Source: Candidatus Gottesmanbacteria bacterium
GTDB lineage: Bacteria > Patescibacteriota > Microgenomatia > UBA10105 > UBA927
Length of the DNA: 64,000 nucleotides
Direction: 5' to 3'
Assembly: GCA_963711735.1 (NCBI GenBank)
Contig: CAVQFA010000003.1
Location: 146,971-210,970 of the forward strand
Part shown: positions 9,656 through 46,730 of the stretch, piece by piece
How positions within the stretch are numbered: the stretch's first letter is position 1
Layout of the letters: each line of letters starts with the position of its first letter
Translations under genes and position numbers: made by a program
Notes under the pieces: generated by a model
Seen by the model: the letters and a program-made list of their open reading frames with translations, nothing else
Databases searched by the model: none
Told to the model about the DNA's origin: nothing

Positions 9656-9669
9656 ATTATATAAAATAA

Positions 9670-24702: not shown

Positions 24703-25212
24703 TTAACCTCCGTGTTGCTCTTGCTGTTCTCCGGCTTGTTTTGGTTGAGGTGGTGCAAGCTTAGGCCCTTTCAGATTTTTCAGGTAATACGCAGTTGATG
24801 CAAGCTGCATAACCGTTTGATAGGATGATCCTGCGGCTTGTCCAAGCGCTGCTCCGACCGGTACAACCTGTTTTGCTTTCAGACTTTCTTTGAATGCATT
24901 TATAAACTGCGGTATGAGTACAAGTACTGCGATAGAAAACAGGCTTGTAATTGTGTCAGGCGCCACTCCGTTGCCCATAAACAGAGGTGGAGCCCAAAGA
25001 GTTTGATTTTTTCCTCCGATAGAAGCAGAAGAAACTTGGGCCGTAAGTCCGTATGATATAAGCAGTGTGCCGGCGGTTATGGGAAACGCCATGAGGTTTC
25101 CGACAAGTCCGCGTATCCATCCTCCAAACGCGTTATTTCCCGGAATGGCACCGAAGAGAAGCTGTATAGGACCCAGCAGAAGTCCAAGTATGATTTGTAC
25201 GTAACACCCCAA
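24703..25212 (-). CDS. VirB6/TrbL-like protein, C-terminal portion (different frame; probable continuation of 25077..25973)
   Basis: Further TM helices and a Gln/Pro-rich tail 'PPQPKQAGEQQEQHGG', typical of TrbL C-termini. Overlaps the upstream ORF by 136 nt. Confidence 0.5.
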   Translation of the reverse strand: MGCYVQIILGLLLGPIQLLFGAIPGNNAFGGWIRGLVGNLMAFPITAGTLLISYGLTAQVSSASIGGKNQTLWAPPLFMGNGVAPDTITSLFSIAVLVLIPQFINAFKESLKAKQVVPVGAALGQAAGSSYQTVMQLASTAYYLKNLKGPKLAPPQPKQAGEQQEQHGG

Positions 25213-25973
25213 CAGCGTGAAAAAAATGCGGACGTCACAAACAGAAGGAAAATCGCTAAAAGAAAAAGGATTATAAGCGAAATCCCGCCAACACCAACCA
25301 GCGCAGCCACTGCGAGAAAAGGGACAATGGGCGCTGTTATTCCCAGACCCAACAGTATTACTCCCGCCGCAAGAGTCGATACTCCGCCGGCTACAATTGT
25401 AGGTCCTGGCCCAACCACATCTATGAGCATTCCAAACAGGCTACCGGCTCCGAGCGGAAATAATAAATCTATTCCATCCTTTAGCTTGGCACCGAGGAAC
25501 GCATTGATGACATCGGGTGTCACCTGGATAATTCCTGACTGACCAAAAAGTCCGATTACCAGAAGAATGAGAAGATACATTATATCAATGAGTATCGCAA
25601 CAATTGCATAAGAGAATGTGATGAGAAGAAGCGTCACGACTATTTTAGGCAGGGAATTTTGGACTGTAATTACCGTTTTAGGATCTATTTTTTTCCGAAA
25701 CATGATCATAAACCCAATAATAATCATGACGACAGCAGGAATGGCATACGATATATTTCTGAACACTTTCCACATAGGGAGAAGCGGAGCCAATCCGGCA
25801 AACCCGATTCCCTGAGCGTATGTTTGTTTGGGAATAAACCCGAGCGATTGTCCTGTGTCGTTTATAAAAGCGCTATGTGGACGCTGGAGGGCTTTGATAC
25901 ATTGGATAATTGAGTTTGTGAACCCCAACAAAGCACCGCTTTTTTTTTCACCCGTTCTGCATATTCGGATCAT
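25077..25973 (-). CDS. VirB6/TrbL-like polytopic membrane protein, N-terminal portion
   Basis: Multiple TM helices: 'AIPAVVMIIIGFMIMF', 'IVVTLLLITFSYAIVAILIDIMYLLILLVIGLF', 'GGVSTLAAGVILLGLGITAPIVPFLAVAALVGVGGISLIILFLLAIFLLF'. Confidence 0.55.
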   Translation of the reverse strand: MIRICRTGEKKSGALLGFTNSIIQCIKALQRPHSAFINDTGQSLGFIPKQTYAQGIGFAGLAPLLPMWKVFRNISYAIPAVVMIIIGFMIMFRKKIDPKTVITVQNSLPKIVVTLLLITFSYAIVAILIDIMYLLILLVIGLFGQSGIIQVTPDVINAFLGAKLKDGIDLLFPLGAGSLFGMLIDVVGPGPTIVAGGVSTLAAGVILLGLGITAPIVPFLAVAALVGVGGISLIILFLLAIFLLFVTSAFFSRCWGVTYKSYLDFCWVLYSFSSVPFREITRLEDGYADLSETSWRFP

Positions 25974-26741: not shown

Positions 26742-27116
26742 TTATGGTGTATACGGAAGAGGTATCTTTACTCCTGATCCCAAAAGCGTAATACCAAGGA
26801 ATTGCTGTACCAGCATCATGATTGCCCACGCTGCTCCGACAATAATAAGTCCGACAACTGCATGCGTGATTTTGTTGCGTGCTGCCTCCATACCGGACTT
26901 GTCGCCGCCCGCGGTGATCCATTGAATTCCGCCGAGAATGAGATAAAGAAACGCAAGAAGCGCAGCTATGATCATAAGCAAACCGACAGCGGCTCCGATA
27001 AGCTCACCCAGACTTGTGATCTTAATAAGTTCCGTGTTTCTGGTAACTGCTATTGTGCTGGGATCGTCCTGTGCATATATAACTGGTGCTAAGAAATTCA
27101 TACGTTCCTCCTTCAA
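26742..27116 (-). CDS. VirB2/TrbC-like T4SS pilin paralog 2
   Basis: 'LILGGIQWITAGGDKSGMEAARNKITHAVVGLIIVGAAWAIMMLV'. Confidence 0.7.
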   Translation of the reverse strand: MKEERMNFLAPVIYAQDDPSTIAVTRNTELIKITSLGELIGAAVGLLMIIAALLAFLYLILGGIQWITAGGDKSGMEAARNKITHAVVGLIIVGAAWAIMMLVQQFLGITLLGSGVKIPLPYTP

Positions 27117-27207
27117 TGTATACTATAGTTGATTATATCGTACCTCTAATTGTGTCGCAACTCTTCCTACTTTGTCAATACACGCAATATGAGATCAGGT
27201 GTACACA

Positions 27208-27627
27208 TCAGCACGGTTGTCCCGGTGCGCACGTTGGGGCGGGTACTCCCCCGGGTCCGACATTTGATGGAGAAAGAACGCTGGGAAAAGGAATGTTCGG
27301 GAAAGAAATTCCAAAAAATGTGCCAAGAAAAAGCATAATTGCCCAGACGGATCCCACAATGAGAAGGCCGACAATTGCATGCGTTATTTTATTCCGTGCA
27401 TCCTCTAGCTTCGCTTTGTCTCCGCTTGCTGTAATCCATGATATACCGCCAAGAAGGAGATATACGAGGGCAAAAATGAACGAGAATATAAAAAACGCAG
27501 CAATAAAAGCACCCAATAAAGATCCAAAAACTAAACCTCCGGTTGTATATTCACCCGGATTTCCGCTTCCGCCCAAAAACGAAGGTAAAACAGGATTTTT
27601 CAGTTGTGCTAAAAGATGTGTGCTCAT
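27208..27627 (-). CDS. VirB2/TrbC-like T4SS pilin paralog 3
   Basis: 'LLLGGISWITASGDKAKLEDARNKITHAIVGLLIVGSVWAIMLFL'. Confidence 0.7.
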   Translation of the reverse strand: MSTHLLAQLKNPVLPSFLGGSGNPGEYTTGGLVFGSLLGAFIAAFFIFSFIFALVYLLLGGISWITASGDKAKLEDARNKITHAIVGLLIVGSVWAIMLFLGTFFGISFPNIPFPSVLSPSNVGPGGVPAPTCAPGQPC

Positions 27628-27630
27628 ATA

Positions 27631-28065
27631 TTATGGTGTTCCTCCGCTTCCGGGCAGCTCAAGCTGTTGTATTACCGTTGCCGGATCTATAAGCGTGTCA
27701 AACCCGAAGAACATCCCGACAAGCGCGAGTATCGCCCAACCCGCAATAACGATGACAAGACCGATAAACGCGTTCGTTATTCTGTCTCTTGCCTGTTGGA
27801 GTTTTCCCTTGTCTCCGCCTGAGGTAAGCCAGTTCAAGCCTCCCACAAGGAACTGGAAGATAAACCAGATAAGTGCAGCAATTGTCATGATGCCGATGAT
27901 GGATGATACGACCTGAGTGACTTTGGTAAGTGCACTGACCGCACCGGCACTTCCTCTGCCTATAACATCGGACCCGATGTTTCCAAACGGACCTAACCCC
28001 CCTCCGCCAATCGTTCCGAGGTCAGTGCCAACAGGATCTGCTGCATAAATGTGTTCTGATATCAT
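27631..28065 (-). CDS. VirB2/TrbC-like T4SS pilin paralog 4
   Basis: 'FLVGGLNWLTSGGDKGKLQQARDRITNAFIGLVIVIAGWAILALV'. The gap to paralog 3 is 3 nt. Confidence 0.7.
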   Translation of the reverse strand: MISEHIYAADPVGTDLGTIGGGGLGPFGNIGSDVIGRGSAGAVSALTKVTQVVSSIIGIMTIAALIWFIFQFLVGGLNWLTSGGDKGKLQQARDRITNAFIGLVIVIAGWAILALVGMFFGFDTLIDPATVIQQLELPGSGGTP

Positions 28066-28068
28066 AAA

Positions 28069-28437
28069 TTAGTTACCCGGACCATATATTTTCGGATTCA
28101 GCATGAATCCGGGATCTCCGAATATCAGGTATCCGAAAAGTGCTGCCAGCACAAATGATCCGATGAGAATGACAAGTCCGATAAGCGACTGCCAGATTCT
28201 CGCCCAGGCAGCAGTGAGCGCCTTTGCATCACCTGCCGCCGTCATATACTGATATCCGGCTATTATAATATTAAAAAAAGCAAACGCCCCCGTCACGGAA
28301 AATATAAGGCGGAGAACGTTAGTCAGAAGCGCAATGATACCCGTGTTATAAGAGCCATACGACGCGTTCATGGGGTTTGTAACAGTGCCGATAACTGATG
28401 ATGCGTCTGCAAGCACTTGTATATAATTCATAGACAA
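28069..28437 (-). CDS. VirB2/TrbC-like T4SS pilin paralog 5 (more divergent)
   Basis: 'IIAGYQYMTAAGDAKALTAAWARIWQSLIGLVILIGSFVLAALFG'. Confidence 0.65.
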   Translation of the reverse strand: MSMNYIQVLADASSVIGTVTNPMNASYGSYNTGIIALLTNVLRLIFSVTGAFAFFNIIIAGYQYMTAAGDAKALTAAWARIWQSLIGLVILIGSFVLAALFGYLIFGDPGFMLNPKIYGPGN

Positions 28438-28447
28438 TAAATATGTA

Positions 28448-28759
28448 CTACGGCAATGGCGCCGAAAGGAGCGTCATGCCTGTTAATTTTTCCAATATTT
28501 GGACGATCCAGTACGATACGACAATCAGGATAAGACCCAGAACCGCTCCTGTTATCGTTTTTTGTCCCTGTTCGAGCTTTTTGGTATCACCGGCTCCAGC
28601 GCCCATTATAACGCCGAATCCGCCCAACACCAAGAGGAGGAAGGTGAGAACCGCCGCTAACATAAAAGCATTTTTTACGATGATGTTCACGAGATCACCA
28701 AATGATGCAATCGGAGACGGAGCAACGGTGCCAAGATCCAGAGCAAAAACACGGTTCAT
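28448..28759 (-). CDS. VirB2/TrbC-like T4SS pilin paralog 6 (first in operon)
   Basis: 'LLVLGGFGVIMGAGAGDTKKLEQGQKTITGAVLGLILIVVSYWIVQILEKL'. Confidence 0.7.
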   Translation of the reverse strand: MNRVFALDLGTVAPSPIASFGDLVNIIVKNAFMLAAVLTFLLLVLGGFGVIMGAGAGDTKKLEQGQKTITGAVLGLILIVVSYWIVQILEKLTGMTLLSAPLP

Positions 28760-28799: not shown

Positions 28800-28848
28800 G
28801 TTTGCGCGGTATTTTTAGTTTGTCAAATAAGAGGTCTCATGCTATAGT
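28800..28848 (+). promoter_or_regulatory. sigma70-type promoter for the ECF sigma gene, in the divergent region shared with the pilin operon
   Basis: 'tTTGTCAaataagaggtctcatgcTATAGTtacaacGTGgaaaac': a -35 TTGTCA, a 17-nt spacer and a -10 TATAGT lead to a GTG start. Confidence 0.45.
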
Positions 28849-28854: not shown

Positions 28855-29406
28855 GTGGAAAACAAGGAAGATACAAAAGAGATTGTTGCACGCATACTTG
28901 CCCGGGACAAAAACGCGCTTCTGAAATTTTACCGTACGTATGCGCCGCAAATCCGAAGGCATATCGCACATAAAATTCACGACCCTTCTGACGTAGAAGA
29001 AGTACTGCAGGATACCCTCTATGCATTTTTGGAAAGCATACGCGATTTTACGTATGCCGCAAGCATCCGGACATATGTATTTTCCATATGCCGCCATAAA
29101 ATTGCAGATTACTACCGGAAGCGTGAGATCAAACACGCTGTGTTTTCACGCATACCGCAGCTTGAAGCGCTCATCATGCCTCTCGTGTCGAGTGAAGAAA
29201 AGCTTGATGCAGAACTTATGTCTAAAAATGTAGTACAAACACTCGGTCGTTTAATGCCCGCTTACAAGGACGTGTTGTCGCTTCGGTATATTGACGGCAT
29301 GGCAGTTTCTGATGTAGCACAGAAGCTCGCGCTCACAGTTAAAAGCGCCGAATGCAAGCTGTTTCGTGCCAAAAAAGCATTTGTAAAAGCATTCATTGCA
29401 ACCTAG
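28855..29406 (+). CDS. ECF-type sigma-70 family RNA polymerase sigma factor
   Basis: Region 2-like 'LQDTLYAFLESIRDF...YVFSICRHKIADYYRKR'. Region 4 helix-turn-helix 'LSLRYIDGMAVSDVAQKLALTVKSAECKLFRAKKAF'. Confidence 0.75.
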   Translation: MENKEDTKEIVARILARDKNALLKFYRTYAPQIRRHIAHKIHDPSDVEEVLQDTLYAFLESIRDFTYAASIRTYVFSICRHKIADYYRKREIKHAVFSRIPQLEALIMPLVSSEEKLDAELMSKNVVQTLGRLMPAYKDVLSLRYIDGMAVSDVAQKLALTVKSAECKLFRAKKAFVKAFIAT

Positions 29407-29416
29407 AAAGATTTAT

Positions 29417-29647
29417 ATGTCTGACATAACGTACCGACACTTTGTTAAACGATGGCAGGAGGTAACGGATCTCCCGACACAAACAGTCGGACCGCTCACA
29501 CCCCTCTATAAATTTGTTGCATCCAGGCTCAAAACCATGCCGTGGTTTGCTCTCATTGTTATCAGCGTATGCGGGGTTGGTTTGCTTTATGTGCTTATCG
29601 GATCCACAATTACGCTCCTCACGTCCATTCTCCAGCGAGGGTTTTAA
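29417..29647 (+). CDS. candidate anti-sigma factor (small single-pass membrane protein)
   Basis: Immediately downstream of the ECF sigma gene. Single TM 'WFALIVISVCGVGLLYVLIGSTITLL'. Confidence 0.4.
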   Translation: MSDITYRHFVKRWQEVTDLPTQTVGPLTPLYKFVASRLKTMPWFALIVISVCGVGLLYVLIGSTITLLTSILQRGF

Positions 29648-29653: not shown

Positions 29654-30301
29654 TTGTACGACTATATATATATGGGCACCGGAACCGTTTGCGGAATTAT
29701 TGAAAGCGGGATTGGCTTTGTGAAGCACACTGCCGGACTCGTCACTAAACCGTACGAAACATACAGAAACATCGTTTTAAAAGAAGACATCCGTGAAATT
29801 ATCTATATCGGGTGTGTCGTCGGTTTGTATTTTGCCCTGGCATCTCTTATCAGGACAGCCGCATTCCGTCCGTTTTTACTCACAAAGCAATTTATTGTTC
29901 TTGCGGGAGGAGCGTTTGCGGGATATATGCTGGCCTCAGGTATGCTTTGGGTTTCCGGACGGATTCTGGGGGCACGTACCTCTTTGAAAACAGTAATGAC
30001 AGCATGGGGGTATTCGCTTCTGCCGACTGTCGCGTGGTTTATGATGACGTCTGTACTGTATATTGTTCTGCCGCCCCCGAGGACAACACACATAGCGGGT
30101 ATTGTATTTAGTGCGGTATATTTGACAATTTCTGTATCTATCCTGTTTTGGAAAGTAATATGTGCGTATTTAGCTGTCAGATTCAGCATGAAGTTTGATC
30201 TTGTGAGAATTTGTACGGTATACGCCATAACATTACCGGTTCTTGTGCTCTATAGCTTTGTCATGTACCGTTTAGGCATTTTCCGCATTCCATTTTTATA
30301 A
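29654..30301 (+). CDS. Yip1-like polytopic membrane protein
   Basis: About five TM helices; composition resembles YIP1-domain proteins. Confidence 0.4.
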   Translation: MYDYIYMGTGTVCGIIESGIGFVKHTAGLVTKPYETYRNIVLKEDIREIIYIGCVVGLYFALASLIRTAAFRPFLLTKQFIVLAGGAFAGYMLASGMLWVSGRILGARTSLKTVMTAWGYSLLPTVAWFMMTSVLYIVLPPPRTTHIAGIVFSAVYLTISVSILFWKVICAYLAVRFSMKFDLVRICTVYAITLPVLVLYSFVMYRLGIFRIPFL

Positions 30302-30305: not shown

Positions 30306-31517
30306 ATGAACACATCAAACAGAACCTTATCTCCGCACGCACAAATGAAGCTGCATATGATGGATTCTGCAAAAGACAGAAGATCGGTAGTTGAGAAAGA
30401 GCGCCGCGTTGTACTTCCTCAAATCGCAGCATTCAGTTTCGATGAGGATGTGGCGGGGAGCCACAACTGCGAAAACCTTATCGGAGGAACACAGATTCCT
30501 CTGGGGATTGCAGGGCCAATTCACATTAAACCCCGTGCGGATTATTTTATCCCTTTGGCAACGACAGAAGGTGCGCTTGTCGCATCAGTTAACCGCGGGT
30601 GTAATGCCATATCTCAAAGCGGTGGCGCATCAGTTTTGGTTGTCCGTGTGGGAGCTACCCGCGGGCCGGTATTTAAAGTGAAATCAATGGCCGAAAATTC
30701 GTCTCTGTATGATTTTATTTATTCAAATGAAGACACTATACGTAAAATTGCGGAATCTACATCACATCATTTAAAGTTATTACACATTGAAACAAACAGC
30801 GTTGGTTTGTACCGGTTTATCCGGTTTGTGTACGATACCAAAGACGCCATGGGGCTTAATATGGTTACTATCGCAACCGACGTGGTTGTTACATATATTG
30901 AAAAGGAAACCGGGGCAGTCTGTGTCAGTCTGTCCGGTAATTACTGTACGGATAAAAAAGCTTCATGGTTAAACGTGGTGAGTGGTAGGGGGTTTGAGGT
31001 ATGGGCGGAGGCGGTTATTCCGTCTGACATAGTACGCACCATACTAAAAACGACACCTCAGGCTGTTTATCAGACATGGCTGTCCAAGTGTATGATCGGA
31101 AGCGCCATGTCAGGGTCACTTGGATTTAACGCGCAGTATGCCAACATTCTGTCTGCACTCTTTATCGCAACCGGTCAGGATCCTGCACACGTGGCAGAGT
31201 GTGCGGTGGGAATTACGACGGCAGAAGTTGTTGGTGGCACATTGTCGGGTGACGATAAACAAAAAGAGAGTTTATATATGAGTATATATCTGCCGGACGT
31301 GATGGTGGGGACTGTCGGCGGAGGAACGGGACTTCCGACACAGAAAGAAGCACTGTCAATTCTGGGTGTGTCCGGAGGAAATGACGGAAAAAATTCGGAA
31401 AAGCTAGCTGAAATAGTCGGTGGCGCAGTGCTCGCAGGTGAAGTGTCATTCTTAGTCTCACTTTCTGAAGGTTCTTTAGCCCGTGCGCACATAAAACTGG
31501 GAAGAGGAGGGAAATGA
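30306..31517 (+). CDS. hydroxymethylglutaryl-CoA reductase
   Basis: 'ENLIGGTQIPLGIAGPIHIK', '...ATTEGALVAS' and 'DAMGLNMV' are HMGR catalytic motifs. The exact start is uncertain because several in-frame Met residues are candidates. Confidence 0.85.
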   Translation: MNTSNRTLSPHAQMKLHMMDSAKDRRSVVEKERRVVLPQIAAFSFDEDVAGSHNCENLIGGTQIPLGIAGPIHIKPRADYFIPLATTEGALVASVNRGCNAISQSGGASVLVVRVGATRGPVFKVKSMAENSSLYDFIYSNEDTIRKIAESTSHHLKLLHIETNSVGLYRFIRFVYDTKDAMGLNMVTIATDVVVTYIEKETGAVCVSLSGNYCTDKKASWLNVVSGRGFEVWAEAVIPSDIVRTILKTTPQAVYQTWLSKCMIGSAMSGSLGFNAQYANILSALFIATGQDPAHVAECAVGITTAEVVGGTLSGDDKQKESLYMSIYLPDVMVGTVGGGTGLPTQKEALSILGVSGGNDGKNSEKLAEIVGGAVLAGEVSFLVSLSEGSLARAHIKLGRGGK

Positions 31518-31580
31518 GTGATGAGTGGTCGGTTGTGAGCATAAACTCACAACCCACAACTTACAACTTACAACTCGATT

Positions 31581-32627
31581 ATGGTAGACATTATTTCATA
31601 CGGGACATATATTCCGAAATACCGGATCCGTACCGCGGATATTGCCGATGTTTGGAAAAAAAACGCGGACGAAATCATACACTCACTGGGAATAAAAGAG
31701 AAAAGTGTTCCGGCTATAGATGAGGATGCGGTGACAATAGCCATAGAGGCGGCTCTTGGGTGTTTCCGTGTGCAGAAAACCGGCAAACCGTCTGATACAG
31801 GAGCGTTGTTTGTCGGTTCTGAAAGTCATCCGTATGCCGTAAATCCCACCTCTACGATCGTAGGGGATTTTTTGGGTATCGGAAACAATTACCTCGCTGC
31901 GGATTTGGAGTTTGCGTGCAAAGCAGGAAGCGCCGGAATGCAGGCACTTGCCGGGCTTATCGCGTCCGGCCAATACGCGTTTGGTTTGGCAATCGGCGCA
32001 GATACCGCACAGGGAAGACCTCATGATGTTTTGGAATACACCTCAGCAGCGGCAGGTGCAGCGTTTCTTCTCGGAAAAACTGATGGTATAGCCCGATTAG
32101 TGGGATATACATCCTATTCCTCCGATACACCGGATTTCTGGCGCCGCGACGGTATCAGGTATCCAAGCCACGCCGGACGGTTTACAGGAGAGCCTGCATA
32201 TTTCACCCATGTGGTCGGTGCAGCAAGGCAATTGTTTGAAAGAGAGCACATTCAACCGGAAAAAGTGGATTACTGCGTGTTTCATATGCCCAACGGAAAG
32301 TTTCCCCGTGATGTAGCAAAGCGGCTCGGATTTACCCCGAAACAGTTAGCACCGTCCCTGACAGTTGATGCAATCGGCAACCCGTATTCTGCGTCATCGC
32401 TTTTGGGACTTGCCGCACTTTTGGATGTTGTCGAACCGAATAAAACGATCTTTATGGTGTCATACGGATCGGGAGCAGGCAGCGACGCGTTTTTATGGAA
32501 AACAACCAACCGGATACGCGATATACAAAGAAACAGAAAACACGAAAGATGTACCGTACATGATCAGACGGAAAACGAGTCGTATATCAACTACACGGAA
32601 TATTTAAAGAAAACAAATAAAATATGA
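31581..32627 (+). CDS. archaeal-type hydroxymethylglutaryl-CoA synthase
   Basis: 'MVDIISYGTYIPKYRIRTADIADVW...AIDEDAVTIAIEAA' and 'YGSGAGSDAF'. ATGA overlap with the thiolase gene downstream. Confidence 0.85.
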   Translation: MVDIISYGTYIPKYRIRTADIADVWKKNADEIIHSLGIKEKSVPAIDEDAVTIAIEAALGCFRVQKTGKPSDTGALFVGSESHPYAVNPTSTIVGDFLGIGNNYLAADLEFACKAGSAGMQALAGLIASGQYAFGLAIGADTAQGRPHDVLEYTSAAAGAAFLLGKTDGIARLVGYTSYSSDTPDFWRRDGIRYPSHAGRFTGEPAYFTHVVGAARQLFEREHIQPEKVDYCVFHMPNGKFPRDVAKRLGFTPKQLAPSLTVDAIGNPYSASSLLGLAALLDVVEPNKTIFMVSYGSGAGSDAFLWKTTNRIRDIQRNRKHERCTVHDQTENESYINYTEYLKKTNKI

Positions 32628-33775
32628 CAATTTCAATCATAGGCGCTGCAACGACAAAATTCGGAGAACTCTGGGACACGTCTCCCCGTACCCTTGCCGG
32701 GCGCGCGGCAATAGGTGCAATAGAAAACGCAGGTATCACGAGGAAAGACATTGACGGGTTGTTTGTTGGTAACATGCTGTCGGGCATTCTCGGCGGCCAG
32801 GAACACCTGGGAGCGTTTTTTTCTGAAGAACTTGGTCTGGGTGTGCCGGCATGTAAAGTAGAGGGAGCATGTGCATCCGGCGGACTTGCGGTTCATGCTG
32901 CGTATATAGCTGTTGCATCCGGTGAGTATGACACGGTACTGGTTCTCGGAATAGAAAAAATGACGGATTATAAACCGGAAGAAGTGGCAACTGCGCTTAT
33001 GGGGGCAGGGAGCGACGATGAAAGGATGGCAGGGGCAACGTTTCCGGGTTTATATGCGATAATGGCCCGCTCGCATATGGACATGTACGGAACCACACCC
33101 GAAGATCTGGCATCGGTTGCCGTTAAAAATCATTTTCATGCAAGTTTCAATCCCAACGCCCAGTTTCACGCGCTTTTAACCGTTGAACAAGTGCTTACGT
33201 CATCATGCGTTGCTGACCCTTTGAGGCTTCTGGATTGCTCTCCCATATCCGACGGTGCATCAGCAATCGTCATTACCTCCAAGGAGGGGAAAATAAGGAG
33301 AAAAGGAGCAATATCTATTGCCGCTTCGGTTGTGGCGACGGATTCGCTCGGACTGTTCGGACGGAAAAGTCTGACAGGGTTGTCTGCAACGGACAAAGCA
33401 GCCAAACATGCGTATGAAAAAGCAGGGATAGGGCCTAAAAACATTGATGTTGCAGAAGTGCATGATTGTTTTACCATCGCGGAAATTTTTGCTATGGAAG
33501 ATTTAGGAATATATAAAAAAGGAGATGCAGCCGGACGTATAAGCAGGGGAGAAACGAAACTTGATGTTTCCAAACATCTCGTCGTAAACCCTTCAGGGGG
33601 GCTTAAAGGTTGCGGACATCCGGTAGGGGCAACGGGAGTTAAACAAATTGCGGAAATTGTCGAACAACTCCGTGGAAATGCAGGGAAACGGCAGGTAAGC
33701 GGAGCGCATATCGGTCTGACACATAATGTCGGAGGAAGCGGAGCGACGGCAGTCGTGCATATATTAAAAAAATAA
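32624..33775 (+). CDS. acetyl-CoA acetyltransferase (archaeal-type thiolase)
   Basis: 'VEGACASGGLAVHAAYIAVASGEYD' carries the active-site Cys; 'NPSGGLKGCGHPVGATGV'. Confidence 0.85.
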   Translation: MTISIIGAATTKFGELWDTSPRTLAGRAAIGAIENAGITRKDIDGLFVGNMLSGILGGQEHLGAFFSEELGLGVPACKVEGACASGGLAVHAAYIAVASGEYDTVLVLGIEKMTDYKPEEVATALMGAGSDDERMAGATFPGLYAIMARSHMDMYGTTPEDLASVAVKNHFHASFNPNAQFHALLTVEQVLTSSCVADPLRLLDCSPISDGASAIVITSKEGKIRRKGAISIAASVVATDSLGLFGRKSLTGLSATDKAAKHAYEKAGIGPKNIDVAEVHDCFTIAEIFAMEDLGIYKKGDAAGRISRGETKLDVSKHLVVNPSGGLKGCGHPVGATGVKQIAEIVEQLRGNAGKRQVSGAHIGLTHNVGGSGATAVVHILKK

Positions 33776-33802
33776 TTGGATTACGTTAAGTAACTTAATT
33801 GT

Positions 33803-34103
33803 ATGATGAGTCCTGTTAAACTTTGGAGAAATCAGAAAAAAACACGGAAACTGGTTGACAAAACCGGCACGGTTATATCCTGGACTATTGTGCGCGTACC
33901 GCCCAGCGGTTTTGTGTCACAGGCTCCCTATGTTGTAGCGGTTCTTGAGCTTAACCGACACAAGCCGCATTATGTGCCAGCTTGCAGACTGCAGTGAAAA
34001 TGATGTGAAAACAGGACAGACATGCAGACTTGTAATCAGGAAAATCGGCGAACAGGGGACAGACGGGATTATACAGTACGGGATAAAAGCGAAGATTATA
34101 TGA
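33803..34103 (+). CDS. DUF35 OB-fold scaffold protein of the thiolase/HMGCS complex, with an apparent +1 frame break near 33966
   Basis: N-terminus 'TGTVISWTIVRVPPSGFVSQAPYVVAVLELNRHKP' in frame 0. The C-terminus 'IMCQLADCSENDVKTGQTCRLVIRKIGEQGTDGIIQYGIKAKII' reads in frame +1 and ends in an ATGA overlap with idi. Confidence 0.5.
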
Positions 34104-34657
34104 ATACGAACAGAAACGTGATAGTTGTAGACAATAACGATACTCAAATCGGAGAACTCGGTATTATAAAAGCCCATACAGGAGGCGGCACGCTTCATCG
34201 GGCTTTATCAGTTCTGTGCTTTCGGGAATCATCAGGGGGTCCTGAGATATTGCTTCAGAAACGGAGCAAGACAAAAACGCTTTGGGGTGGATTCTGGACC
34301 AACACCATTTGTACGCACCCGGCACCACATGAAACAACGGGAAGTGCGGGAGCAAGAAGACTGAAAGAGGAAATGGGGATTGATATTTCCGAAAAAAAAC
34401 TCACCTTTCTTTACTCGTTTGTCTACCGAGCGCAATACACAAAAACACTCAGTGAACACGAGTACGATCATATTTTTGCAGCTAAATGGAATGGGGCATG
34501 TGTGATGAATCCCAAAGAGGCAGATGACGCAAAATGGTCATCTTTGTCACGTCTCAGGAAAGATATGCATGGCAATCCTCATGTATATACTCCATGGTTT
34601 CATTTAATTATGAACGACAAGCGGACAGTACGGTATTTTGACAATATAACGGCATAA
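34100..34657 (+). CDS. idi: isopentenyl-diphosphate delta-isomerase, type 1 (Nudix fold)
   Basis: 'LHRALSVLCFRESSGGPEILLQKRSKTKTLWGGFWTNTICTHP...GSAGARRLKEEMGI'. Confidence 0.8.
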   Translation: MNTNRNVIVVDNNDTQIGELGIIKAHTGGGTLHRALSVLCFRESSGGPEILLQKRSKTKTLWGGFWTNTICTHPAPHETTGSAGARRLKEEMGIDISEKKLTFLYSFVYRAQYTKTLSEHEYDHIFAAKWNGACVMNPKEADDAKWSSLSRLRKDMHGNPHVYTPWFHLIMNDKRTVRYFDNITA

Positions 34658-34660
34658 CAA

Positions 34661-35362
34661 ATGACAACAAACACTAAACCCACGCATATCGCAATTATTA
34701 TGGACGGAAACCGGCGGTGGGCAAAAGCACACAATCTTCCGCCGATTGCCGGACATAAAAAAGTGGCAGATGATATGCTGGAACCTCTCATAGAACACGC
34801 TGCAAAAATAGGAATTAAGTATGTTACTCTCTGGGCATTTTCTACGGAGAACTGGCAGAGGGAACCGGCAGAAGTGCAGGGCATCATGGGGATATTGCGT
34901 AAATCCCTGAAAACATTCGGAGAGAGAATGCATAAAAAAGGAATACGGATACTGACAATAGGAGATCTGTCGCGTTTTGATACGGACATCCAAAAAACTA
35001 TTGCTGATCTGAAAAATCTGACCTGCAATAATAAAAAAATAACGGTTGTTTTTGCGCTCAACTACGGTGGCAGGGACGAAATTATCCGGGCAGCTCAAAA
35101 ATTCAATGACCTGCAATCGGCAACGCGCAACTTACAACTTACCTCTAATACATTTAGTGATTTTCTCGACACTAAAGGAATTCCTGATCCCGAGCTTATT
35201 GTAAGAACCGGCGGTGAGATGAGACTCAGCGGGTTTCTGCTCTGGCAATGCCAGTATAGCGAGTTATATTTTCCTTCCTGGTATATGCCGGAGTTCACAC
35301 CCGTTCGGCTGGATGAGGCAATTCATGAATATGAGCGCCGGACGCGGAGATTCGGGGCTTAA
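34661..35362 (+). CDS. uppS: undecaprenyl (isoprenyl) diphosphate synthase
   Basis: 'HIAIIMDGNRRWAKAHNLPPIAGHKKV...YVTLWAFSTENWQR' and 'RTGGEMRLSGFLLWQ'. Confidence 0.9.
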   Translation: MTTNTKPTHIAIIMDGNRRWAKAHNLPPIAGHKKVADDMLEPLIEHAAKIGIKYVTLWAFSTENWQREPAEVQGIMGILRKSLKTFGERMHKKGIRILTIGDLSRFDTDIQKTIADLKNLTCNNKKITVVFALNYGGRDEIIRAAQKFNDLQSATRNLQLTSNTFSDFLDTKGIPDPELIVRTGGEMRLSGFLLWQCQYSELYFPSWYMPEFTPVRLDEAIHEYERRTRRFGA

Positions 35363-35365: not shown

Positions 35366-35740
35366 TTACGGAGTACCGGGAAACGTTTCCTGTATCGGTG
35401 TAAATCCAAGTATTGTTCCTGCAATCTGGACGATCCAGTATGCTGCGAAAATAAGGAAAAATCCCAAAAGCGCGTTTGTCAGACGCTGTTTGCCCGATTC
35501 CATTTTTTTAGCATCACCCGCAGCGGTAAGGAACGTGAACCCCGCGCTTATGAACATAAGAAGAACCCCGATTCCTGCTGCCGCAAATATATACGGCAGG
35601 GTCATATAAACAATATCACCGATGTGTTTGCCTCCGAATTTAGATGCGAACCCGGACATTTCGTTGGGATAGGGAACATCGGTATGTGTGCCGGGTGTAG
35701 GTCCGGGTAAATGTAATGCCTGTGCGAGCGTGTGATGCAT
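35366..35740 (-). CDS. VirB2/TrbC-like T4SS pilin paralog 7 (distal copy)
   Basis: 'FISAGFTFLTAAGDAKKMESGKQRLTNALLGFFLIFAAYWIVQIAG'. Confidence 0.65.
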   Translation of the reverse strand: MHHTLAQALHLPGPTPGTHTDVPYPNEMSGFASKFGGKHIGDIVYMTLPYIFAAAGIGVLLMFISAGFTFLTAAGDAKKMESGKQRLTNALLGFFLIFAAYWIVQIAGTILGFTPIQETFPGTP

Positions 35741-39295: not shown

Positions 39296-41131
39296 ATGAA
39301 GATCGTTTCCGACACCGCATCCGTTATCGGCAGCAGCAACCCTACTGTTTGGGGGCAGATACTCAACGGTAAGCACGGGCATGCAGTTGTTGAAGTGAGC
39401 GGTGAAGAACAGGAAGCGGCAAAACAGGGCATTACCCTTCTTGGTGAACTTGAAAAAATTCTGGCAAATCCCCAGCAAAATCCCGAAGATCTGAAAAAAA
39501 TTTCTGCCGATCTCCGTTATCCGCACGTGGTAACGATGATTCTTTGTATACCTGTCGGCAAAATCCTCTATATAACCCTTTCCGGTGAAGGTGGTGTGTA
39601 TCTCAAAAGAGGCAATAACGTAGCGGTTCTTCTCTCGGGTGAGGGGTTTATTTCAGGAGAAGTTCGGGAGAAAGATACGCTCATTCTTGCATCCAAAACT
39701 CTCTCCGCATACATAAAAGACTGCATAGCATCATTTGACCATCTGCCGGCTGAAGAGGCAGCAGAAAAACTCACGTACCTTATCAATTCACAACACGCTG
39801 AATGGTCAGGTGCAGCGCTTATTTATCAGGTTTCGTCGCTTGAAGAGGAACCTGTTGAAACAACGGAATTGCCGGAGGTAAAAGAACAGCCCATCCGGCG
39901 GAGAATTCCTGTATGGATGTCACGCAGGGTTGCCGTGCGTGTGTTTCATGATATCCGGAACGGCCGTATACCGTATAAAGAACGCATGAAGGAAGAAATA
40001 CGGACCATAACATCAAACAAGCGGAGAGTCCTTTCTGCTGTTTTTATATGTTGTGCTGTTATTTTTCTTCTGAGTGTAGTTCTTGGAATCAGGAAACAGG
40101 TAACGGACAAAGGGAACCGCGAAACGTCAGCAGTACTTACGGAAGCGCGGCACGCGTTTGAAGAAGGAGTCGCACTTCGTGACCTCAATACTATAAAAAG
40201 CAGGGAACGGTTCAAAGAAGCGCTGAAAGTACTTGACGCTGCAATAGCAAACAAGACTGTTCCGCCGAACCTCCGTCGTGAGGTAGACACTCTCAGACAA
40301 GACGTGGCAGATAACCTGTCCGTCGTATCAGCAGAGCGGAAGGTGACCCCGTCACTTTTTTTTGATGCGGAACTTTTGAAAAAAGGAGCGAGTGTGAAGA
40401 AAATCGCCAGGGTAAGCGATACGCTTATCATCCTTGACACAAGCGCGCGGACCGTCATAGCACTTTCCGTTGCCGACAAATCCGGTCGTATCATCGGCGG
40501 CGGGGAGTATGTACAGGGCACATCACTCATAACCGGGTATGACAACCGCGCATACCTTTTTTCTGACAACGGCATTTTTATACTGCCGTTTGAAGGAAAA
40601 GCAGATAAAAAACCCGTTATTGCCAAAAACGAAGGATGGGGGAAGATAGCGGCAATGAGTGCATTTGCCGGAAATCTGTATCTTCTGGACTCGGGAAAAA
40701 ACAGGATATGGAAATATATGGCTGTCGAAAGCGGAGGATTTAGTGATATGCGGGAGTATCTCCGTCCAGACACGCTTCCTGATTTTTCCGGCGCAACGGA
40801 CATGCAGATAAACGGATCTGTCTGGGTAAGCACAAGCACGCTGGGATTCTTGAGGTTTACGCAGGGGATGGAGGAGACGTTTGTGCCGACAGGGATTGAA
40901 GGACCGGAGCTTGGTAAAAACCTGTCCGTCTATACCAGCGACGACACCGAACGGGTATACGTGCTTGATAACGCCAACAAAAGAGTTGTGGTTTTCGGAA
41001 AAGACGGCATATACCAATCCCAATATGTATGGGAAGGAGAAATAAGCCCCACAGCGCTTGCGGTGTATGAGAAAGAAAAGATAATCCTTCTCGTTTCTGC
41101 GGGAAAAATCTATTCGTTTGCGTTACAATAG
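39296..41131 (+). CDS. hypothetical membrane protein with C-terminal beta-propeller-like repeats
   Basis: Central TM 'VLSAVFICCAVIFLLSVVLGI'. C-terminal repeats of the type 'LYLLDSGKNRIWKY / VYVLDNANKRVVVFGKDG'. Confidence 0.55.
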   Translation: MKIVSDTASVIGSSNPTVWGQILNGKHGHAVVEVSGEEQEAAKQGITLLGELEKILANPQQNPEDLKKISADLRYPHVVTMILCIPVGKILYITLSGEGGVYLKRGNNVAVLLSGEGFISGEVREKDTLILASKTLSAYIKDCIASFDHLPAEEAAEKLTYLINSQHAEWSGAALIYQVSSLEEEPVETTELPEVKEQPIRRRIPVWMSRRVAVRVFHDIRNGRIPYKERMKEEIRTITSNKRRVLSAVFICCAVIFLLSVVLGIRKQVTDKGNRETSAVLTEARHAFEEGVALRDLNTIKSRERFKEALKVLDAAIANKTVPPNLRREVDTLRQDVADNLSVVSAERKVTPSLFFDAELLKKGASVKKIARVSDTLIILDTSARTVIALSVADKSGRIIGGGEYVQGTSLITGYDNRAYLFSDNGIFILPFEGKADKKPVIAKNEGWGKIAAMSAFAGNLYLLDSGKNRIWKYMAVESGGFSDMREYLRPDTLPDFSGATDMQINGSVWVSTSTLGFLRFTQGMEETFVPTGIEGPELGKNLSVYTSDDTERVYVLDNANKRVVVFGKDGIYQSQYVWEGEISPTALAVYEKEKIILLVSAGKIYSFALQ

Positions 41132-41147
41132 CGGACATTCCGATGAT

Positions 41148-41591
41148 ATGAAAATAGTACACAAACGGGCTCTGTTTGACTATACGATTTCCGAAAGACT
41201 TGAAGCCGGCATCCAGCTTACCGGTGCTGAAGTTAAATCACTCGCCGGCGGACACGCAAGCCTCGAAGGATCATTTGTTCGGATTATGGGAACCGAAGCG
41301 TACCTCGTGAATGCCCAGATATTTCCCTACATTTATGCCCGTCCGGAGGGGTATGATCCTAAACGGACGAGGAAGCTTCTTGTCCATAAAAAACAGCTGT
41401 TGAGCCTGAAATCGAAGATTGAGGGCGCCAATTTGACCCTGGTACCCATTTCTTTATATAATAAAGGACCGAAATTCAAGCTCGAGATAGGTATAGGGAG
41501 AGGGAAAAAACAGTTTGAAAAGAGGGAAAAAAAGCGGAAAGAGGACCAGAAGAGGGAGCTCGAGAGGGATTTTCGGGGAAAGATAAAATAA
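41148..41591 (+). CDS. smpB: SsrA-binding protein
   Basis: 'MKIVHKRALFDYTISERLEAGIQLTGAEVKSLAGGHASLEGSFVRI'. Confidence 0.9.
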   Translation: MKIVHKRALFDYTISERLEAGIQLTGAEVKSLAGGHASLEGSFVRIMGTEAYLVNAQIFPYIYARPEGYDPKRTRKLLVHKKQLLSLKSKIEGANLTLVPISLYNKGPKFKLEIGIGRGKKQFEKREKKRKEDQKRELERDFRGKIK

Positions 41592-41695
41592 AGGTAGTCC
41601 TCCTGATCTTACCGTTCGCCTTAGTAGATTTCTACTGCGGCTCACGGAGCGATCCAAGGAGGACAAAAATCTAGCAATATTAACGATAGATTTTT

Positions 41696-42110
41696 GGGGA
41701 TGATTGATTCGACGGGAGTAGCTCATTGACAACCGCAAGCCGGCTTTTGATATGTAGCCGTAAAAGAAGTATCAAAAAATAATTGCTGATACAAAAGCAA
41801 AACTTCGCCAAGAACTCGCGGATCTCCGCGCATACTTCGGCGAATCTCCAAGAGCATACGCTCAGCTTTCATTAGCTGCGTAAACTCCTGTGGGACGTTT
41901 TCTAAGTTACCTTTTCCGGTTGGTGCTTGGAAGGCGGAAACAATAGCCGGGACACAGAAATCAAATTGACCGATTGATTTCGGAGAAAAAGGTCAACCCT
42001 TTCCGCAGTTGTCATGTCCATGAGTCATGCGGGAAGAATAACATGGACTACGCTTGTAGACGTTTGATATAAGCTCTTTCGGAACCGGGCTCAATACCCG
42101 GCATCTCCAC
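41696..42110 (+). ncRNA. ssrA: transfer-messenger RNA
   Basis: 5' end 'GGGGATGATTGATTCGACGGG'. 3' T-arm 'CCGGGCTCAATACCCGG' plus acceptor 'CATCTCCA' gives a G3:U70 pair. The internal ORF ends '...AYAQLSLAA' then TAA. Located directly after smpB. Confidence 0.75.
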
Positions 42111-42332
42111 AGCCGTAGCCGATCCGATTTCTAATCGGGAGGCGTACGGATGTGAATGCCCCACCTTCAGCGGGGCGCCACAGCCGGATTTTTTTTATTA
42201 TAATGCTTACGAATATGTGTGTCCCGAAGAAGGCGGACGCCACATTCCTCTTCTTATAAATACATTCTTAAGATAATCCCGGGATCATCACGTTTCCTCA
42301 CGACGATATGTATTTAATGTATCATTATATTC

Positions 42333-43785: not shown

Positions 43786-43869
43786 GGAGAGTGGGCAGAA
43801 CGGTAATGCACAGGTTTGCTAAACCTGCAACGCGCAAGCGTTGAGTGGGTTCAACTCCCACACTCTCCG
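43786..43869 (+). tRNA. tRNA-Ser (anticodon GCU)
   Basis: Cloverleaf with acceptor GGAGAGT/ACTCTCC, anticodon stem-loop 'CAGGT TTGCTAA ACCTG', a long variable arm and T-arm 'GTGGGTTCAACTCCCAC'. Confidence 0.8.
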
Positions 43870-43890
43870 CATATATGGTATACTGGTTAA

Positions 43891-44367
43891 GTGGTTGAGT
43901 ACATAAGAAACCCAAATACAAACTGTTGTGTTTGCCATAAACCAGTATACAAAAGACCCTCACAAATTAAGTTAAATCACGGAAAAGTTTATTGTGGTCT
44001 TGAGTGTTATGGTATTTCTTGTAGAAGGGAAAAACCATGTATAATATGCGGGAAGCCTGTTTTGGCAGGATTAAATAAAAAAACGTGTAGTCGAAGCTGC
44101 TCGAACAAATTAAGAATAGGAACGCATTATCATGGAGGTTATTCACGAAGTAAAGTCAAAAATTACCAAAGTTTGAAAATGCGCTTGATTGCTCAAAGAG
44201 GGAAAAAATGTGAACGATGTGGATACGGGAAACTTGAAATATTACAAGTACATCACGTGAATAAAGATCGGAACAATAATGAATTGAGCAATTTGGAATT
44301 GATATGTCCTAATTGTCATTATGAAGAACATTTGTTACAAAAAAGTTGGATGAAAACGTTGGTTTAA
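43891..44367 (+). CDS. free-standing HNH endonuclease
   Basis: Multiple CxxC pairs and the HNH core 'CERCGYGKLEILQVHHVNKDRNNNELSNLELICPNCH'. Confidence 0.75.
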   Translation: MVEYIRNPNTNCCVCHKPVYKRPSQIKLNHGKVYCGLECYGISCRREKPCIICGKPVLAGLNKKTCSRSCSNKLRIGTHYHGGYSRSKVKNYQSLKMRLIAQRGKKCERCGYGKLEILQVHHVNKDRNNNELSNLELICPNCHYEEHLLQKSWMKTLV

Positions 44368-44377
44368 TAGTAAACAA

Positions 44378-44462
44378 GGAGGGTGGGCAGGACGGTAATG
44401 CGCGAGTCTTGAAAACTCGTGGGAGCAATCCCTAACAGGTTCGACCCCTGTATCCTCCGCCA
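44378..44462 (+). tRNA. tRNA-Ser (anticodon UGA), CCA encoded
   Basis: Acceptor GGAGGGT/ATCCTCC, anticodon stem-loop 'CGAGT CTTGAAA ACTCG', long variable arm, T-arm 'CAGGTTCGACCCCTG'. Confidence 0.8.
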
Positions 44463-44543
44463 AGTTAAACTTGGCTAGGACGTTTGATGTCTTGCGTTGA
44501 TATTTTTTGTTCCCTCCGAAGTCTTAGCGAAGGAGGACTTCTT

Positions 44544-44629
44544 TGGAGAGGTCGCATAGTTGGTCTAGTGCAGCAGTTTACTAAACTGCCGTAACGCAAG
44601 TTACCGCGAGTTCGAATCTCGCCCTCTCC
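44544..44629 (+). tRNA. type II tRNA (Ser-like acceptor) with apparent anticodon ACU
   Basis: Acceptor GGAGAGG/CCTCTCC, anticodon stem-loop 'GCAGT TTACTAA ACTGC', long variable arm, T-arm 'GCGAGTTCGAATCTCGC'. The anticodon assignment is unusual. Confidence 0.5.
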
Positions 44630-44714
44630 GCCGGGTTATCTAGCCACATTTTTAATCACAAGAGAAAGATACCCCTTCCCATCCGGAAAGCATAATAATT
44701 GATATAATGACAGC

Positions 44715-45782: not shown

Positions 45783-46036
45783 CGGAGATATATAGATTCT
45801 ACAAACGACACCGACACCTTACTTATGGTCTGTTCTTAAAAGCAGGAGAAGACTATTTTTGTTTTGTTGTGTGGGTCGAAAATAACATTTTTATAAGTAA
45901 AATCGGCATACTATACCCCAGAGAGAAATACCCCTATCCGTAATAGCTTCCAAAGCCGTCAGTGGACCGATTTCAGTGTAAACTTACGCTCTCCGTATTT
46001 TTGAAATAGACAGAGGAAATATATACAATAATTCTA

Positions 46037-46684
46037 ATGGGAAAAATTATCCCTCGTCTTCTCACTCTCAGCTTCTTCTTAAGTCTTGCTCCAAATGTAT
46101 ATGCCAATATGGCTTTACCACCATCATACTACTACGGTTCCAGCGTCTTTCTACTTCTTACAATGGTTATTTCAGATGCAATAGCACTTTGGTTAGCTCT
46201 GAAACTTGTTAGGGTAAAAATAAACAAAGTAAAATTTTTCATAGCCTTAATAACAACAGTAATACTGGGAATAATTGCTGACATTTCTTCGTTAATAATC
46301 ACGAATACGCTGCTTAATACTTTTTTCCCCCTCTTTAGCCGTTATCATCAGGGTTTTCTTAGAAAAGTTGACTATCTATTATTATTTTCACCCTCATCCT
46401 TTTATATGTTGGGGGTATCTTTGAATAACTTTACGTCTCATTTTCCGGAATATGTTCCTCCTCTGGGAGTAAGTTTGCTTATGATTTCTGCATTTATCTG
46501 TATTGCATGTTTTAACTTAATTCATAAAGCAATTTTTAAAATAAGTGCCAAACAAGCATTTTTAACCGCATTATTATTGGGAATATTTACCAATCCGGGT
46601 TGGGGTTTATATCCATATGCATTTATCGCCTGGATAATAATTTTAGGGATCATATTTATTTTTATAAAGAAAAATAAGCTCTAA
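46037..46684 (+). CDS. polytopic membrane protein (hypothetical)
   Basis: About six hydrophobic helices. Confidence 0.5.
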   Translation: MGKIIPRLLTLSFFLSLAPNVYANMALPPSYYYGSSVFLLLTMVISDAIALWLALKLVRVKINKVKFFIALITTVILGIIADISSLIITNTLLNTFFPLFSRYHQGFLRKVDYLLLFSPSSFYMLGVSLNNFTSHFPEYVPPLGVSLLMISAFICIACFNLIHKAIFKISAKQAFLTALLLGIFTNPGWGLYPYAFIAWIIILGIIFIFIKKNKL

Positions 46685-46730
46685 CGTAACTACGTTTCAT
46701 TAACAAACAGGTAATACTCAATTCCCTTTT

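Follow-up and report, generated by a model that had tools for sequence, protein, structure and literature searches.

In Gram-positive cocci, mevalonate operons comprise mvaS, mvaA, mvaK1, mvaD, and mvaK2, and involve a bacterial-type 3-hydroxy-3-methylglutaryl-CoA (HMG-CoA) synthase (HMGS), a class-II HMG-CoA reductase (HMGR) and a thiolase-II enzyme, with no DUF35 protein. In archaea, a thiolase, HMGS and a DUF35 subunit form a complex (2018 PNAS report, as cited in PMC12960953; Protein Data Bank (PDB) entry 6ESQ), and mevalonate-type complexes can be told apart from repurposed bacterial acyltransferases by the Glu-Cys-His-Asn tetrad of HMGS together with the CxS, HDxF and GHx motifs of the thiolase (PMC12960953, 2026). 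Archaeal-type mevalonate enzymes that form a clade of the Candidate Phyla Radiation (CPR) have also been described in the Microgenomates group (Hoshino & Gaucher 2018, Mol Biol Evol 35:2185; PMC6107057), in a paper with 0 occurrences of DUF35. The subject of this analysis is a six-gene mevalonate cluster, HMGR-HMGS-thiolase-DUF35-idi-uppS, located within a 64-kb stretch of contig CAVQFA010000003.1 (the window) from Candidatus Gottesmanbacteria bacterium, a Patescibacteria/Microgenomates host. The cluster is probably the Microgenomates mevalonate operon, vertically inherited, whose lower-pathway genes have been relocated elsewhere and whose DUF35 gene carries a frameshift that is either an error or a very recent mutation. 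Microgenomates were already known to possess archaeal-type mevalonate enzymes, and in this respect the locus adds little; what it contributes is a CPR-wide DUF35 that lacks the zinc ribbon, a lineage-specific removal of the lower genes, whose slot idi now occupies, and a frameshift for which a technical origin is more likely than a biological one.

The six genes lie on the plus strand, and the identities and coordinates proposed for them in the initial annotation were borne out by family models, as was the description of HMGS, thiolase and DUF35 as archaeal-type, which matches to 6ESQ also support. The first gene encodes a class-I (NADPH type) HMGR (30306-31517), which scores 390 bits with PF00368 and 415.5 bits with TIGR00533 (NADPH, class I), slightly below the cut-off of 441.8, against 60 bits with the class II model TIGR00532. 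The HMGS that follows (31581-32627) is of archaeal/CPR type, surpassing the cut-offs of TIGR00748 'HMG_CoA_syn_Arc' (413.8 bits; cut-off 353) and NF003274 (454.8 bits; cut-off 244), and scoring 91.8 bits with the bacterial mvaS model TIGR01835 and 62-68 with FabH models. The acetoacetyl-CoA thiolase (THL; 32624-33775), equally of archaeal/CPR type, reaches 475 bits with NF004720 (cut-off 420) and 460 bits with the Methanothermococcus equivalog NF053570 AcCoTHIOL_METTL, under its cut-off of 600; a grouping of these proteins with FabH or bacterial thiolases, which had been named as a check on the assignment, was not found. The DUF35 scaffold gene (33803-34103) is a short CPR form that is frameshifted and matches PF01796 after repair. 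It precedes a type-1 isopentenyl-diphosphate isomerase (IDI, encoded by idi; 34100-34657; NF002995, 138 bits, cut-off 127) and an undecaprenyl-diphosphate synthase, the cis-prenyltransferase UppS (34661-35362; PF01255, 245 bits; TIGR00055, 232 bits, cut-off 110), which is the last operon gene in relatives too.

HMGS, thiolase and DUF35 are adjacent and in the same order as in archaeal complex loci. The ATGA-type coupling that had been attributed to the cluster holds at two junctions only, HMGS/thiolase (32624-32627) and DUF35 in its repaired frame/idi (34100-34103), and fails at the others, where gaps of 3-63 nt occur, including 27 nt from the thiolase stop to the DUF35 start and 3 nt between idi and uppS. 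The GC content is not atypical. A promoter and terminator scan of 28.5-36.6 kb returned counts no higher than chance, such that no operon boundaries can be claimed; the single strong promoter-like site (28820-28848) lies just 5' of an upstream sigma factor gene, in a total number of sites not above chance.

Both condensing enzymes retain the residues expected of a mevalonate-type complex. For HMGS, thiolase and DUF35 alike, the closest relative in the PDB is a subunit of the Methanothermococcus thermolithotrophicus complex 6ESQ/6ET9: HMGS scores 344 bits against 6ESQ chain I and thiolase 329 bits against chain A, and DUF35 matches chain E (6ESQ_E) with E = 1e-11. Residue-by-residue alignment to 6ESQ_I reveals an intact Glu-Cys-His-Asn tetrad in HMGS (E82, C114, H238 and N270, in 6ESQ numbering) and conserved segments GSESHPY, EFACKAG, VFHMPNGKF and IGNPYS, and the thiolase, aligned to 6ESQ_A, carries CAS, HDCF and GHP in the places of CxS, HDxF and GHx. 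Inspection by eye further suggests that the His, Cys and Glu residues of Escherichia coli Idi are retained in IDI, and that HMGR still has its C-terminal His along with the ENxIG, DAMGxN and GTVGGGT motifs.

The DUF35 protein differs from the archaeal scaffold with which the initial annotation had equated it, in that the zinc-ribbon domain is missing. Its alignment to 6ESQ_E places query residues 5-18 on chain residues 3-16 and query residues 21-95 on chain residues 51-124, and from this gap it follows that the ribbon, 6ESQ_E residues ~17-50, has been deleted. No CxxC pair is present in the window protein, and a scan for the zinc ribbon PF12172 in this protein and its homologues from loci L086, L021 and L008 gave no match, PF01796 alone being detected; in four control DUF35 proteins scanned, both PF12172 and PF01796 were matched. 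The same form is found across the group: the 31 CPR DUF35 proteins from species-representative loci measure 98-111 aa and have no CxxC, and loci L085 and L086 add two further short ones, such that none of 33 CPR homologues bears the ribbon of the archaeal subunit. Homologues from archaea, Cloacimonadota, Ignavibacteria and Chlorobi, on the other hand, are 122-148 aa long and possess two CxxC pairs (33/33).

When 1.84 billion representatives were searched exhaustively with a DUF35 homologue of 55% identity, 495 relatives were identified, and most of the best 150 of these are ~97-105 aa long and aligned from residue 1; the repaired DUF35 itself, used as query in a word-indexed protein search, yielded one match. 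The AlphaFold model of the 55%-identical homologue (55 sequences; pLDDT 90.6) displays a helix at residues 4-17 followed by a five-stranded barrel, and its best structural matches are the DUF35 chains of 6ESQ, including 6ESQ_F (rmsd 1.6 Å, TM 0.75). The CPR DUF35 is thus an N-terminal helix plus an OB fold, ribbon-less throughout the group, an observation that goes beyond the paper of Hoshino and Gaucher, and a literature search found no paper pairing DUF35 with Patescibacteria. This ~100-aa protein may represent a minimal scaffold, and the zinc ribbon may be dispensable for channeling between thiolase and HMGS; as a natural deletion mutant, it could help to identify the portion of the scaffold on which substrate channeling depends. 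It is of note that a 1126-aa protein of the representative library, P0259, has 12 separate DUF35-like matched stretches, and may be either a tandem-repeat DUF35 protein or a mis-prediction.

The initial annotation had also placed a +1 shift in DUF35 near 33966; the shift exists, its direction is right and its position is accurate to ~13 nt. Codon-level comparison with relatives (L086, L008, L021, L002, L005 and L009) locates it at 33953/33954, as one extra A in CTT-A-ACC. The context reads TGAGCTTAACCGACA, and deletion of one A at 33953/33954 restores ...VAVLELTDTSRIMCQLAD..., with the repaired protein reading ...APYVVAVLELTDTSRIMCQLAD..., colinear with ...VELTDGKRITAQLVD... of L086. The limits of the shift are set by a second-frame TAG (33936-33938) and by conserved residues on both sides. 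As it stands, the sequence splits the OB fold in half: frame 1 (33803-33997) encodes 64 aa up to a TGA at 33995-33997 and covers only positions 4-36 of the 65 in the PF01796 profile (37.6 bits), and the C-terminal half lies in the next (+1) frame, up to the TGA at 34101-34103. Repair generates a 99-aa protein that spans positions 4-64 of 65 (60.5 bits), thus restoring the OB fold, and that aligns without gaps to its relatives.

Leave-one-out family hidden Markov models (HMMs) assign 133.7 bits to the repaired protein (relatives, 134.2 ± 9.7) and 48.1 bits to the out-of-frame half (relatives, 52.8 ± 5.3), with -2.2 for the frame-1 tail; since both the repaired protein and the out-of-frame half score like their relatives, no decay has followed the shift. 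The frameshift is unique to this genome, being found in 0/33 CPR homologues. A second one occurs 9 kb upstream, where a conserved ~500-aa membrane protein (24703-25973, minus strand) is split between overlapping ORFs (open reading frames) 25077-25973 and 24703-25212, which meet at a seven-T run (A7 on the plus strand) with the switch near 25218-25226. Homologues of this protein measure 507 aa (L083) and 494 aa (L085), the joined frames align to the C-terminus, and the lesion resembles the loss of a single base, the length error typical of homopolymers. In L085, a 995-kb contig, the first GHMP kinase gene (9448-10336) is full-length over three frames with at least two frameshifts, which suggests that indel errors occur in such long-contig assemblies. 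In the window itself indels must be infrequent, given that ~20 other conserved genes are intact.

The uniqueness of the DUF35 shift, the conservation of both halves of the gene and the second frameshift in a T7 run together point to an error or a very recent mutation. The most likely cause, with somewhat better than even confidence, is a mistake in assembly or sequencing, and a real recent mutation has an appreciable, if lesser, chance. The source annotation over-extended idi by starting it at ATG 34022 (211 aa; P0124, 100% identical, on the 567,027-bp contig), in overlap with the out-of-frame half of DUF35; homologues and the ATGA overlap both favour a start at 34100. No entry for the 64-aa DUF35 fragment is present in the protein collection, and the source annotation probably missed the gene altogether. 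The frameshift can serve as a caution for annotation.

A feature that the initial annotation had overlooked is the absence of the kinases and the decarboxylase that normally lie between DUF35 and uppS in relatives. Among the CPR loci that extend past DUF35, 24 of 31 carry two GHMP kinases and a diphosphomevalonate decarboxylase (MDD) after it, often ending at uppS. According to NCBIfam models, the first of these genes encodes a divergent mevalonate kinase (MVK)-like enzyme (TIGR00549, 143-147 bits, below the cut-off of 163), presumably the phosphomevalonate kinase ('PMVK') of Hoshino and Gaucher; the second encodes MVK (186-204 bits, above the cut-off), and the third MDD (TIGR01240, 261 bits; cut-off 171). 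In the window this slot holds idi alone. When the three lower proteins of relatives were compared by tblastn with the 64-kb window, the best E values were 0.1-0.7, save for a Nudix domain that matched idi, and a Pfam scan of 43 window ORFs detected no GHMP kinase, isopentenyl phosphate kinase (IPK), UbiD/AcnX-type enzyme or methylerythritol phosphate (MEP) pathway enzyme. A check proposed earlier, namely whether MEP genes are present and lower mevalonate genes absent, finds neither set within the 64-kb window.

The arrangement of the lower genes varies among relatives as well. The upper and lower blocks are apart or partly missing in six loci: L008 keeps only the first kinase, an intact GHMP1, with no MVK or MDD nearby; L016 and L019 have one kinase and MDD; L004 has unrelated genes after DUF35 and no lower genes nearby; and L014 and L023 contain 2-kb insertions. 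In L086 the order is DUF35, an IDI that is the nearest homologue of the window IDI (49% identical) and a GHMP kinase, plausibly an intermediate arrangement. Finally, the 3.2-kb locus L089 (Logan ERR3478686) presents a trans-isoprenyl diphosphate synthase (IPPS), a sigma factor of the extracytoplasmic function (ECF) type, a small ORF, a Yip1-domain protein, IDI and an unknown protein, with no HMGR, HMGS or thiolase, and its lineage may have lost the upper module at this locus.

Most relatives have IDI-like genes that share only 25-36% identity with the window IDI, and canonical IDIs, including those of carotenoid (crtI-crtB-idi) clusters of Bacteroidota, share 45-50%, a pattern that fits the published observation that type-1 IDIs of the CPR are not monophyletic. 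A scan of metagenome contigs with the IDI protein recovered two distant matches and no close relative. In L006, L009 (13660-15144), L010, L076 and L085, MVK carries a fused Nudix/IDI-like domain at its C-terminus (NF002995, 82 bits, below the cut-off of 127). The possibility that idi is a remnant of such a fusion was considered and rejected, its identity to this domain being 28% as opposed to the 45-50% shared with canonical IDIs.

The reading that best accommodates these data is a working pathway, favoured because the window proteins score at or above their family means and because idi, uppS and the trans-prenyltransferase gene are intact. Leave-one-out HMM z-scores of HMGR, HMGS, THL and UppS against CPR families range from +0.03 to +0.57, with HMGR, for instance, at 585 bits against 584 ± 29 for relatives. 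In such a pathway, the thiolase would convert two acetyl-CoA molecules to acetoacetyl-CoA, to which HMGS would add a third acetyl-CoA, generating HMG-CoA. By analogy with the archaeal complex, DUF35 probably holds the two enzymes together and helps to pull the unfavourable thiolase step forward. The class-I HMGR would then reduce HMG-CoA to mevalonate, IDI would interconvert isopentenyl diphosphate (IPP) and dimethylallyl diphosphate, and UppS, primed by the trans-prenyltransferase encoded at 56921, would supply the C55 lipid carrier for cell-wall synthesis. The PMVK-like GHMP kinase, MVK and MDD appear to have been removed from the DUF35-uppS slot, with idi now there instead, and we infer that another part of the 567-kb chromosome encodes them. 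Such relocation is plausible, given that the upper and lower blocks are apart or partly missing in several relatives, that L008 keeps GHMP1 alone and that L086 has an intermediate order.

An alternative that is less likely, though not negligible, is that the pathway is eroding: the lower genes would be truly lost, the upper module a relic, and the DUF35 shift, like that at ~25220, a genuine first step of pseudogenisation. The organism, whose genome is reduced and which is probably host-dependent, would in that case obtain IPP or polyprenyl precursors from a host or by another route. Several points speak for this alternative or weigh against a working pathway with relocated genes. MVK, PMVK-like, MDD, IPK, UbiD/AcnX-type and MEP genes are all absent from the 64 kb, the lower genes being missing both from their conserved slot and from the window as a whole; the stepwise loss in relatives, with GHMP1 alone in L008, one kinase in L016 and L019, none nearby in L004, and Yip1 directly ahead of IDI without upper genes in L089, makes real erosion possible. 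In addition, there are two frameshifts within 9 kb, that in DUF35 lying outside any homopolymer, the usual site of long-read errors; no near strain is available for comparison, the next-best thiolase being 74% identical; and complex formation by a ribbon-less DUF35 is proposed by analogy with the archaeal complex.

However, constraint is not relaxed in HMGR, HMGS or THL, nor in either half of DUF35, and any loss would have to be very recent. The intact idi, uppS and trans-IPPS genes still require IPP, the tight idi-uppS (3-nt gap) and DUF35-idi (ATGA overlap) junctions resemble those of a working operon, and the second frameshift is of the kind typical of homopolymer length errors. That the lineage has truly lost MVK, the second kinase and MDD, and is now inactivating DUF35 while keeping HMGR, HMGS, thiolase, IDI and UppS, is deemed somewhat less likely again; if true, a symbiont would be dismantling an essential isoprenoid pathway, or splitting it with its host, with mevalonate or IPP exchanged with a partner cell.

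The likeness of HMGS, thiolase and DUF35 to archaeal proteins had raised the idea that the module was acquired from, or shared with, archaea. In a scan of one genome per species, ~590 HMGS relatives were found, of which the ~30 top ones (49-69% identity) belong to metagenome-assembled genomes (MAGs) of Patescibacteria, with archaea next at 49-57%. The nearest homologues of the cluster (49-74% identity) come from Gottesman-, Levy-, Roizman- and Daviesbacteria, of the Microgenomates group, and from other Patescibacteria. In neighbour-joining trees, the bipartition that joins the window to 31-32 CPR sequences, to the exclusion of archaea, was recovered in 50/50 bootstraps for HMGS and in 47/50 for thiolase; locus L008 is the nearest neighbour of the window in both trees, and the window/L008/L086 grouping is weak (9-25 of 60 bootstraps). 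Around 30 related genomes hold the same block within 17-20 kb of conserved synteny. Two of these loci, L083 and L085, which were fetched via the thiolase, have ~17 kb of gene order in common with the window: upstream, a large protein, the ~500-aa membrane protein, 5-6 pilins, the ECF sigma factor, the small ORF and Yip1; and onward, HMGR, HMGS, THL, DUF35, a variable middle, UppS, a pilin, SpoIID and bPH_2.

Membership of the CPR clade and synteny, in agreement with PMC6107057, indicate that the cluster has been inherited vertically within Microgenomates/CPR, as what appears to be an old common trait with no local archaeal acquisition, and the likeness to archaeal enzymes appears to be ancient and group-wide. 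Sharing with archaea therefore stands only in a deep, CPR-wide sense, and acquisition does not. That the thiolase/HMGS/DUF35 module reached this bacterium by a recent horizontal transfer from an archaeon is highly improbable: archaeal family models and the archaeal crystal structure are indeed the best matches of the three proteins, and Archaeoglobales HMGS is 53-57% identical to that of the window, but the sequences group with ~32 from Patescibacteria to the exclusion of all archaea, identities are 60-74% to CPR relatives against 42-57% to archaea, the operon and its 17-20 kb flanks are syntenic across Microgenomates, DUF35 is of the CPR-specific ribbon-less form, and the GC content is not atypical. 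As a separate observation, some record labels are at odds with the genes they describe: L004 ('Ca. Methanoperedens') and many third-party annotation (TPA) MAGs of 'uncultured Gammaproteobacteria' hold the CPR-type operon with a ribbon-less DUF35, and in L054 ('Saccharimonadales') the cluster resembles that of Micrarchaeota and includes a zinc-ribbon DUF35; the names or bins of these loci are open to doubt.

A programmed +1 slip at CUU-A-ACC, through which peptidyl-tRNA-Leu would move from CUU to UUA to produce full-length DUF35 and possibly set its stoichiometry, is more improbable still. In yeast Ty1, an analogous +1 slip occurs by re-pairing of peptidyl-tRNA-Leu. In the window, the sequence at the precise site would formally allow CUU to UUA re-pairing, conservation extends over both halves of DUF35, and idi is coupled to the second frame; however, none of the 33 CPR relatives is shifted and the site has variable codons, the A site contains neither an in-frame stop nor an obviously rare codon, no Shine-Dalgarno-like stimulator lies upstream, and the second, unrelated frameshift nearby points to error.

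Upstream of the mevalonate genes lies a conserved trio. An ECF-type sigma-70 factor (28855-29406, plus strand; Pfam Sigma70_r2 and r4_2), which occupies the same place at the head of the syntenic block in L083, L085 and L089, may open the transcription unit. It is followed by a small ORF of 83 aa (29396-29647, plus strand, from the ORF list), whose position is kept by ORFs of 76-81 aa in the same three loci, and by a Yip1-domain membrane protein (29654-30301, plus strand; PF04893, 45.5 bits) that ends 4 nt 5' of HMGR. The Yip1 gene lies immediately 5' of HMGR in at least 15 CPR loci, overlapping it in some relatives, and the trio of ECF sigma, small ORF and Yip1 is kept ahead of HMGR in at least 15 CPR loci. 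The trans-polyprenyl diphosphate synthase (56921-57982, plus strand; PF00348, 159 bits), of the short-chain farnesyl/geranylgeranyl diphosphate type, is located outside the operon, 21 kb from it, and remains under the cut-offs of all NCBIfam short-chain IPPS models.

The location of the cluster in an 'origin region' is loosely correct, dnaA (6919-8364) and dnaN (8546-9655) lying ~22 kb upstream, and is irrelevant to the cluster. The window also contains rpoD, dnaG, SmpB/tmRNA, genes resembling those of type IV secretion systems (T4SS) and tandem T4SS-pilin genes. Five tandem small T4SS-pilin-like genes occupy 26742-28759 (minus strand) and one more follows uppS (35366-35740, minus strand); this pilin array also borders the mevalonate operon in L083 and L085. 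VirB4-like, PrgI-like and VirD4-like genes are present as well, in the region of 13390-15285 (minus strand), 16010-17284 (minus strand) and 17427-19598 (plus strand). SmpB and then tmRNA (Rfam, 110 bits) occupy 41118-42112, with an ARAGORN-predicted tag of 32 residues, which is unusually long. Five tRNA-Ser and two tRNA-Arg genes are scattered over 43786-55404, especially at 44-48 kb, where GC is 0.37-0.40 beside an HNH endonuclease gene (43891-44367); one tRNA-Ser (44545-44632) has an anticodon called ACT, at an odd position.

The broader interest of the locus is linked to the debate on the ancestral isoprenoid pathway, in which the Microgenomates mevalonate enzymes figure. Together with L004, L008, L086 and L089, the window presents an operon whose lower half has been moved or lost, which bears on the dependence of tiny genomes on partners for lipid-carrier precursors.

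Among known systems, the operons of Gram-positive cocci share the overall chemistry, and the lower half found in relatives of the window (MVK, a second GHMP kinase and MDD) is of their classical type; the window differs in its HMGS (92 bits with TIGR01835), in its HMGR (60 bits with the class-II model) and in the presence of DUF35. The PhlABC/MucABC C-acyltransferases (PDB 5M3K and 9VBT) are homologous three-protein assemblies of HMGS-like, thiolase-like and DUF35 subunits, which have lost the tetrad and HDxF and kept the ribbon, whereas the window has kept the motifs and lost the ribbon. That the trio is a Friedel-Crafts C-acyltransferase of this type, belonging to secondary metabolism and unrelated to mevalonate, can be set aside as the least probable of all readings: homology is detectable (5M3K_A, 175 bits; PhlB, MucC and 9SKH in the fold search), but the tetrad and HDxF lost in Phl/Muc enzymes (PMC12960953) are intact here, the trio is flanked by HMGR, IDI and UppS, and the archaeal mevalonate complex scores twice as high.

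The archaeal thiolase/HMGS/DUF35 complex (PMC12960953; 6ESQ) resembles the window trio in gene order and catalytic motifs, and its chains are the best PDB relatives; in the putative CPR counterpart, DUF35 lacks the rubredoxin-like zinc ribbon (residues ~17-50 of the archaeal protein, PF12172) and HMGR belongs to the same operon, and in the window DUF35 is frameshifted as well. In the CPR/Microgenomates cluster of PMC6107057, MVK, PMVK and diphosphomevalonate decarboxylase (DPMD) are encoded, where the window cluster and its 64 kb lack MVK, the second GHMP kinase and MDD and have idi instead. With that cluster the window nonetheless shares an archaeal-type acetoacetyl-CoA thiolase and HMGS, a class-I HMGR, a type-1 IDI and a linked cis-prenyltransferase, and its proteins sit in the CPR clade.

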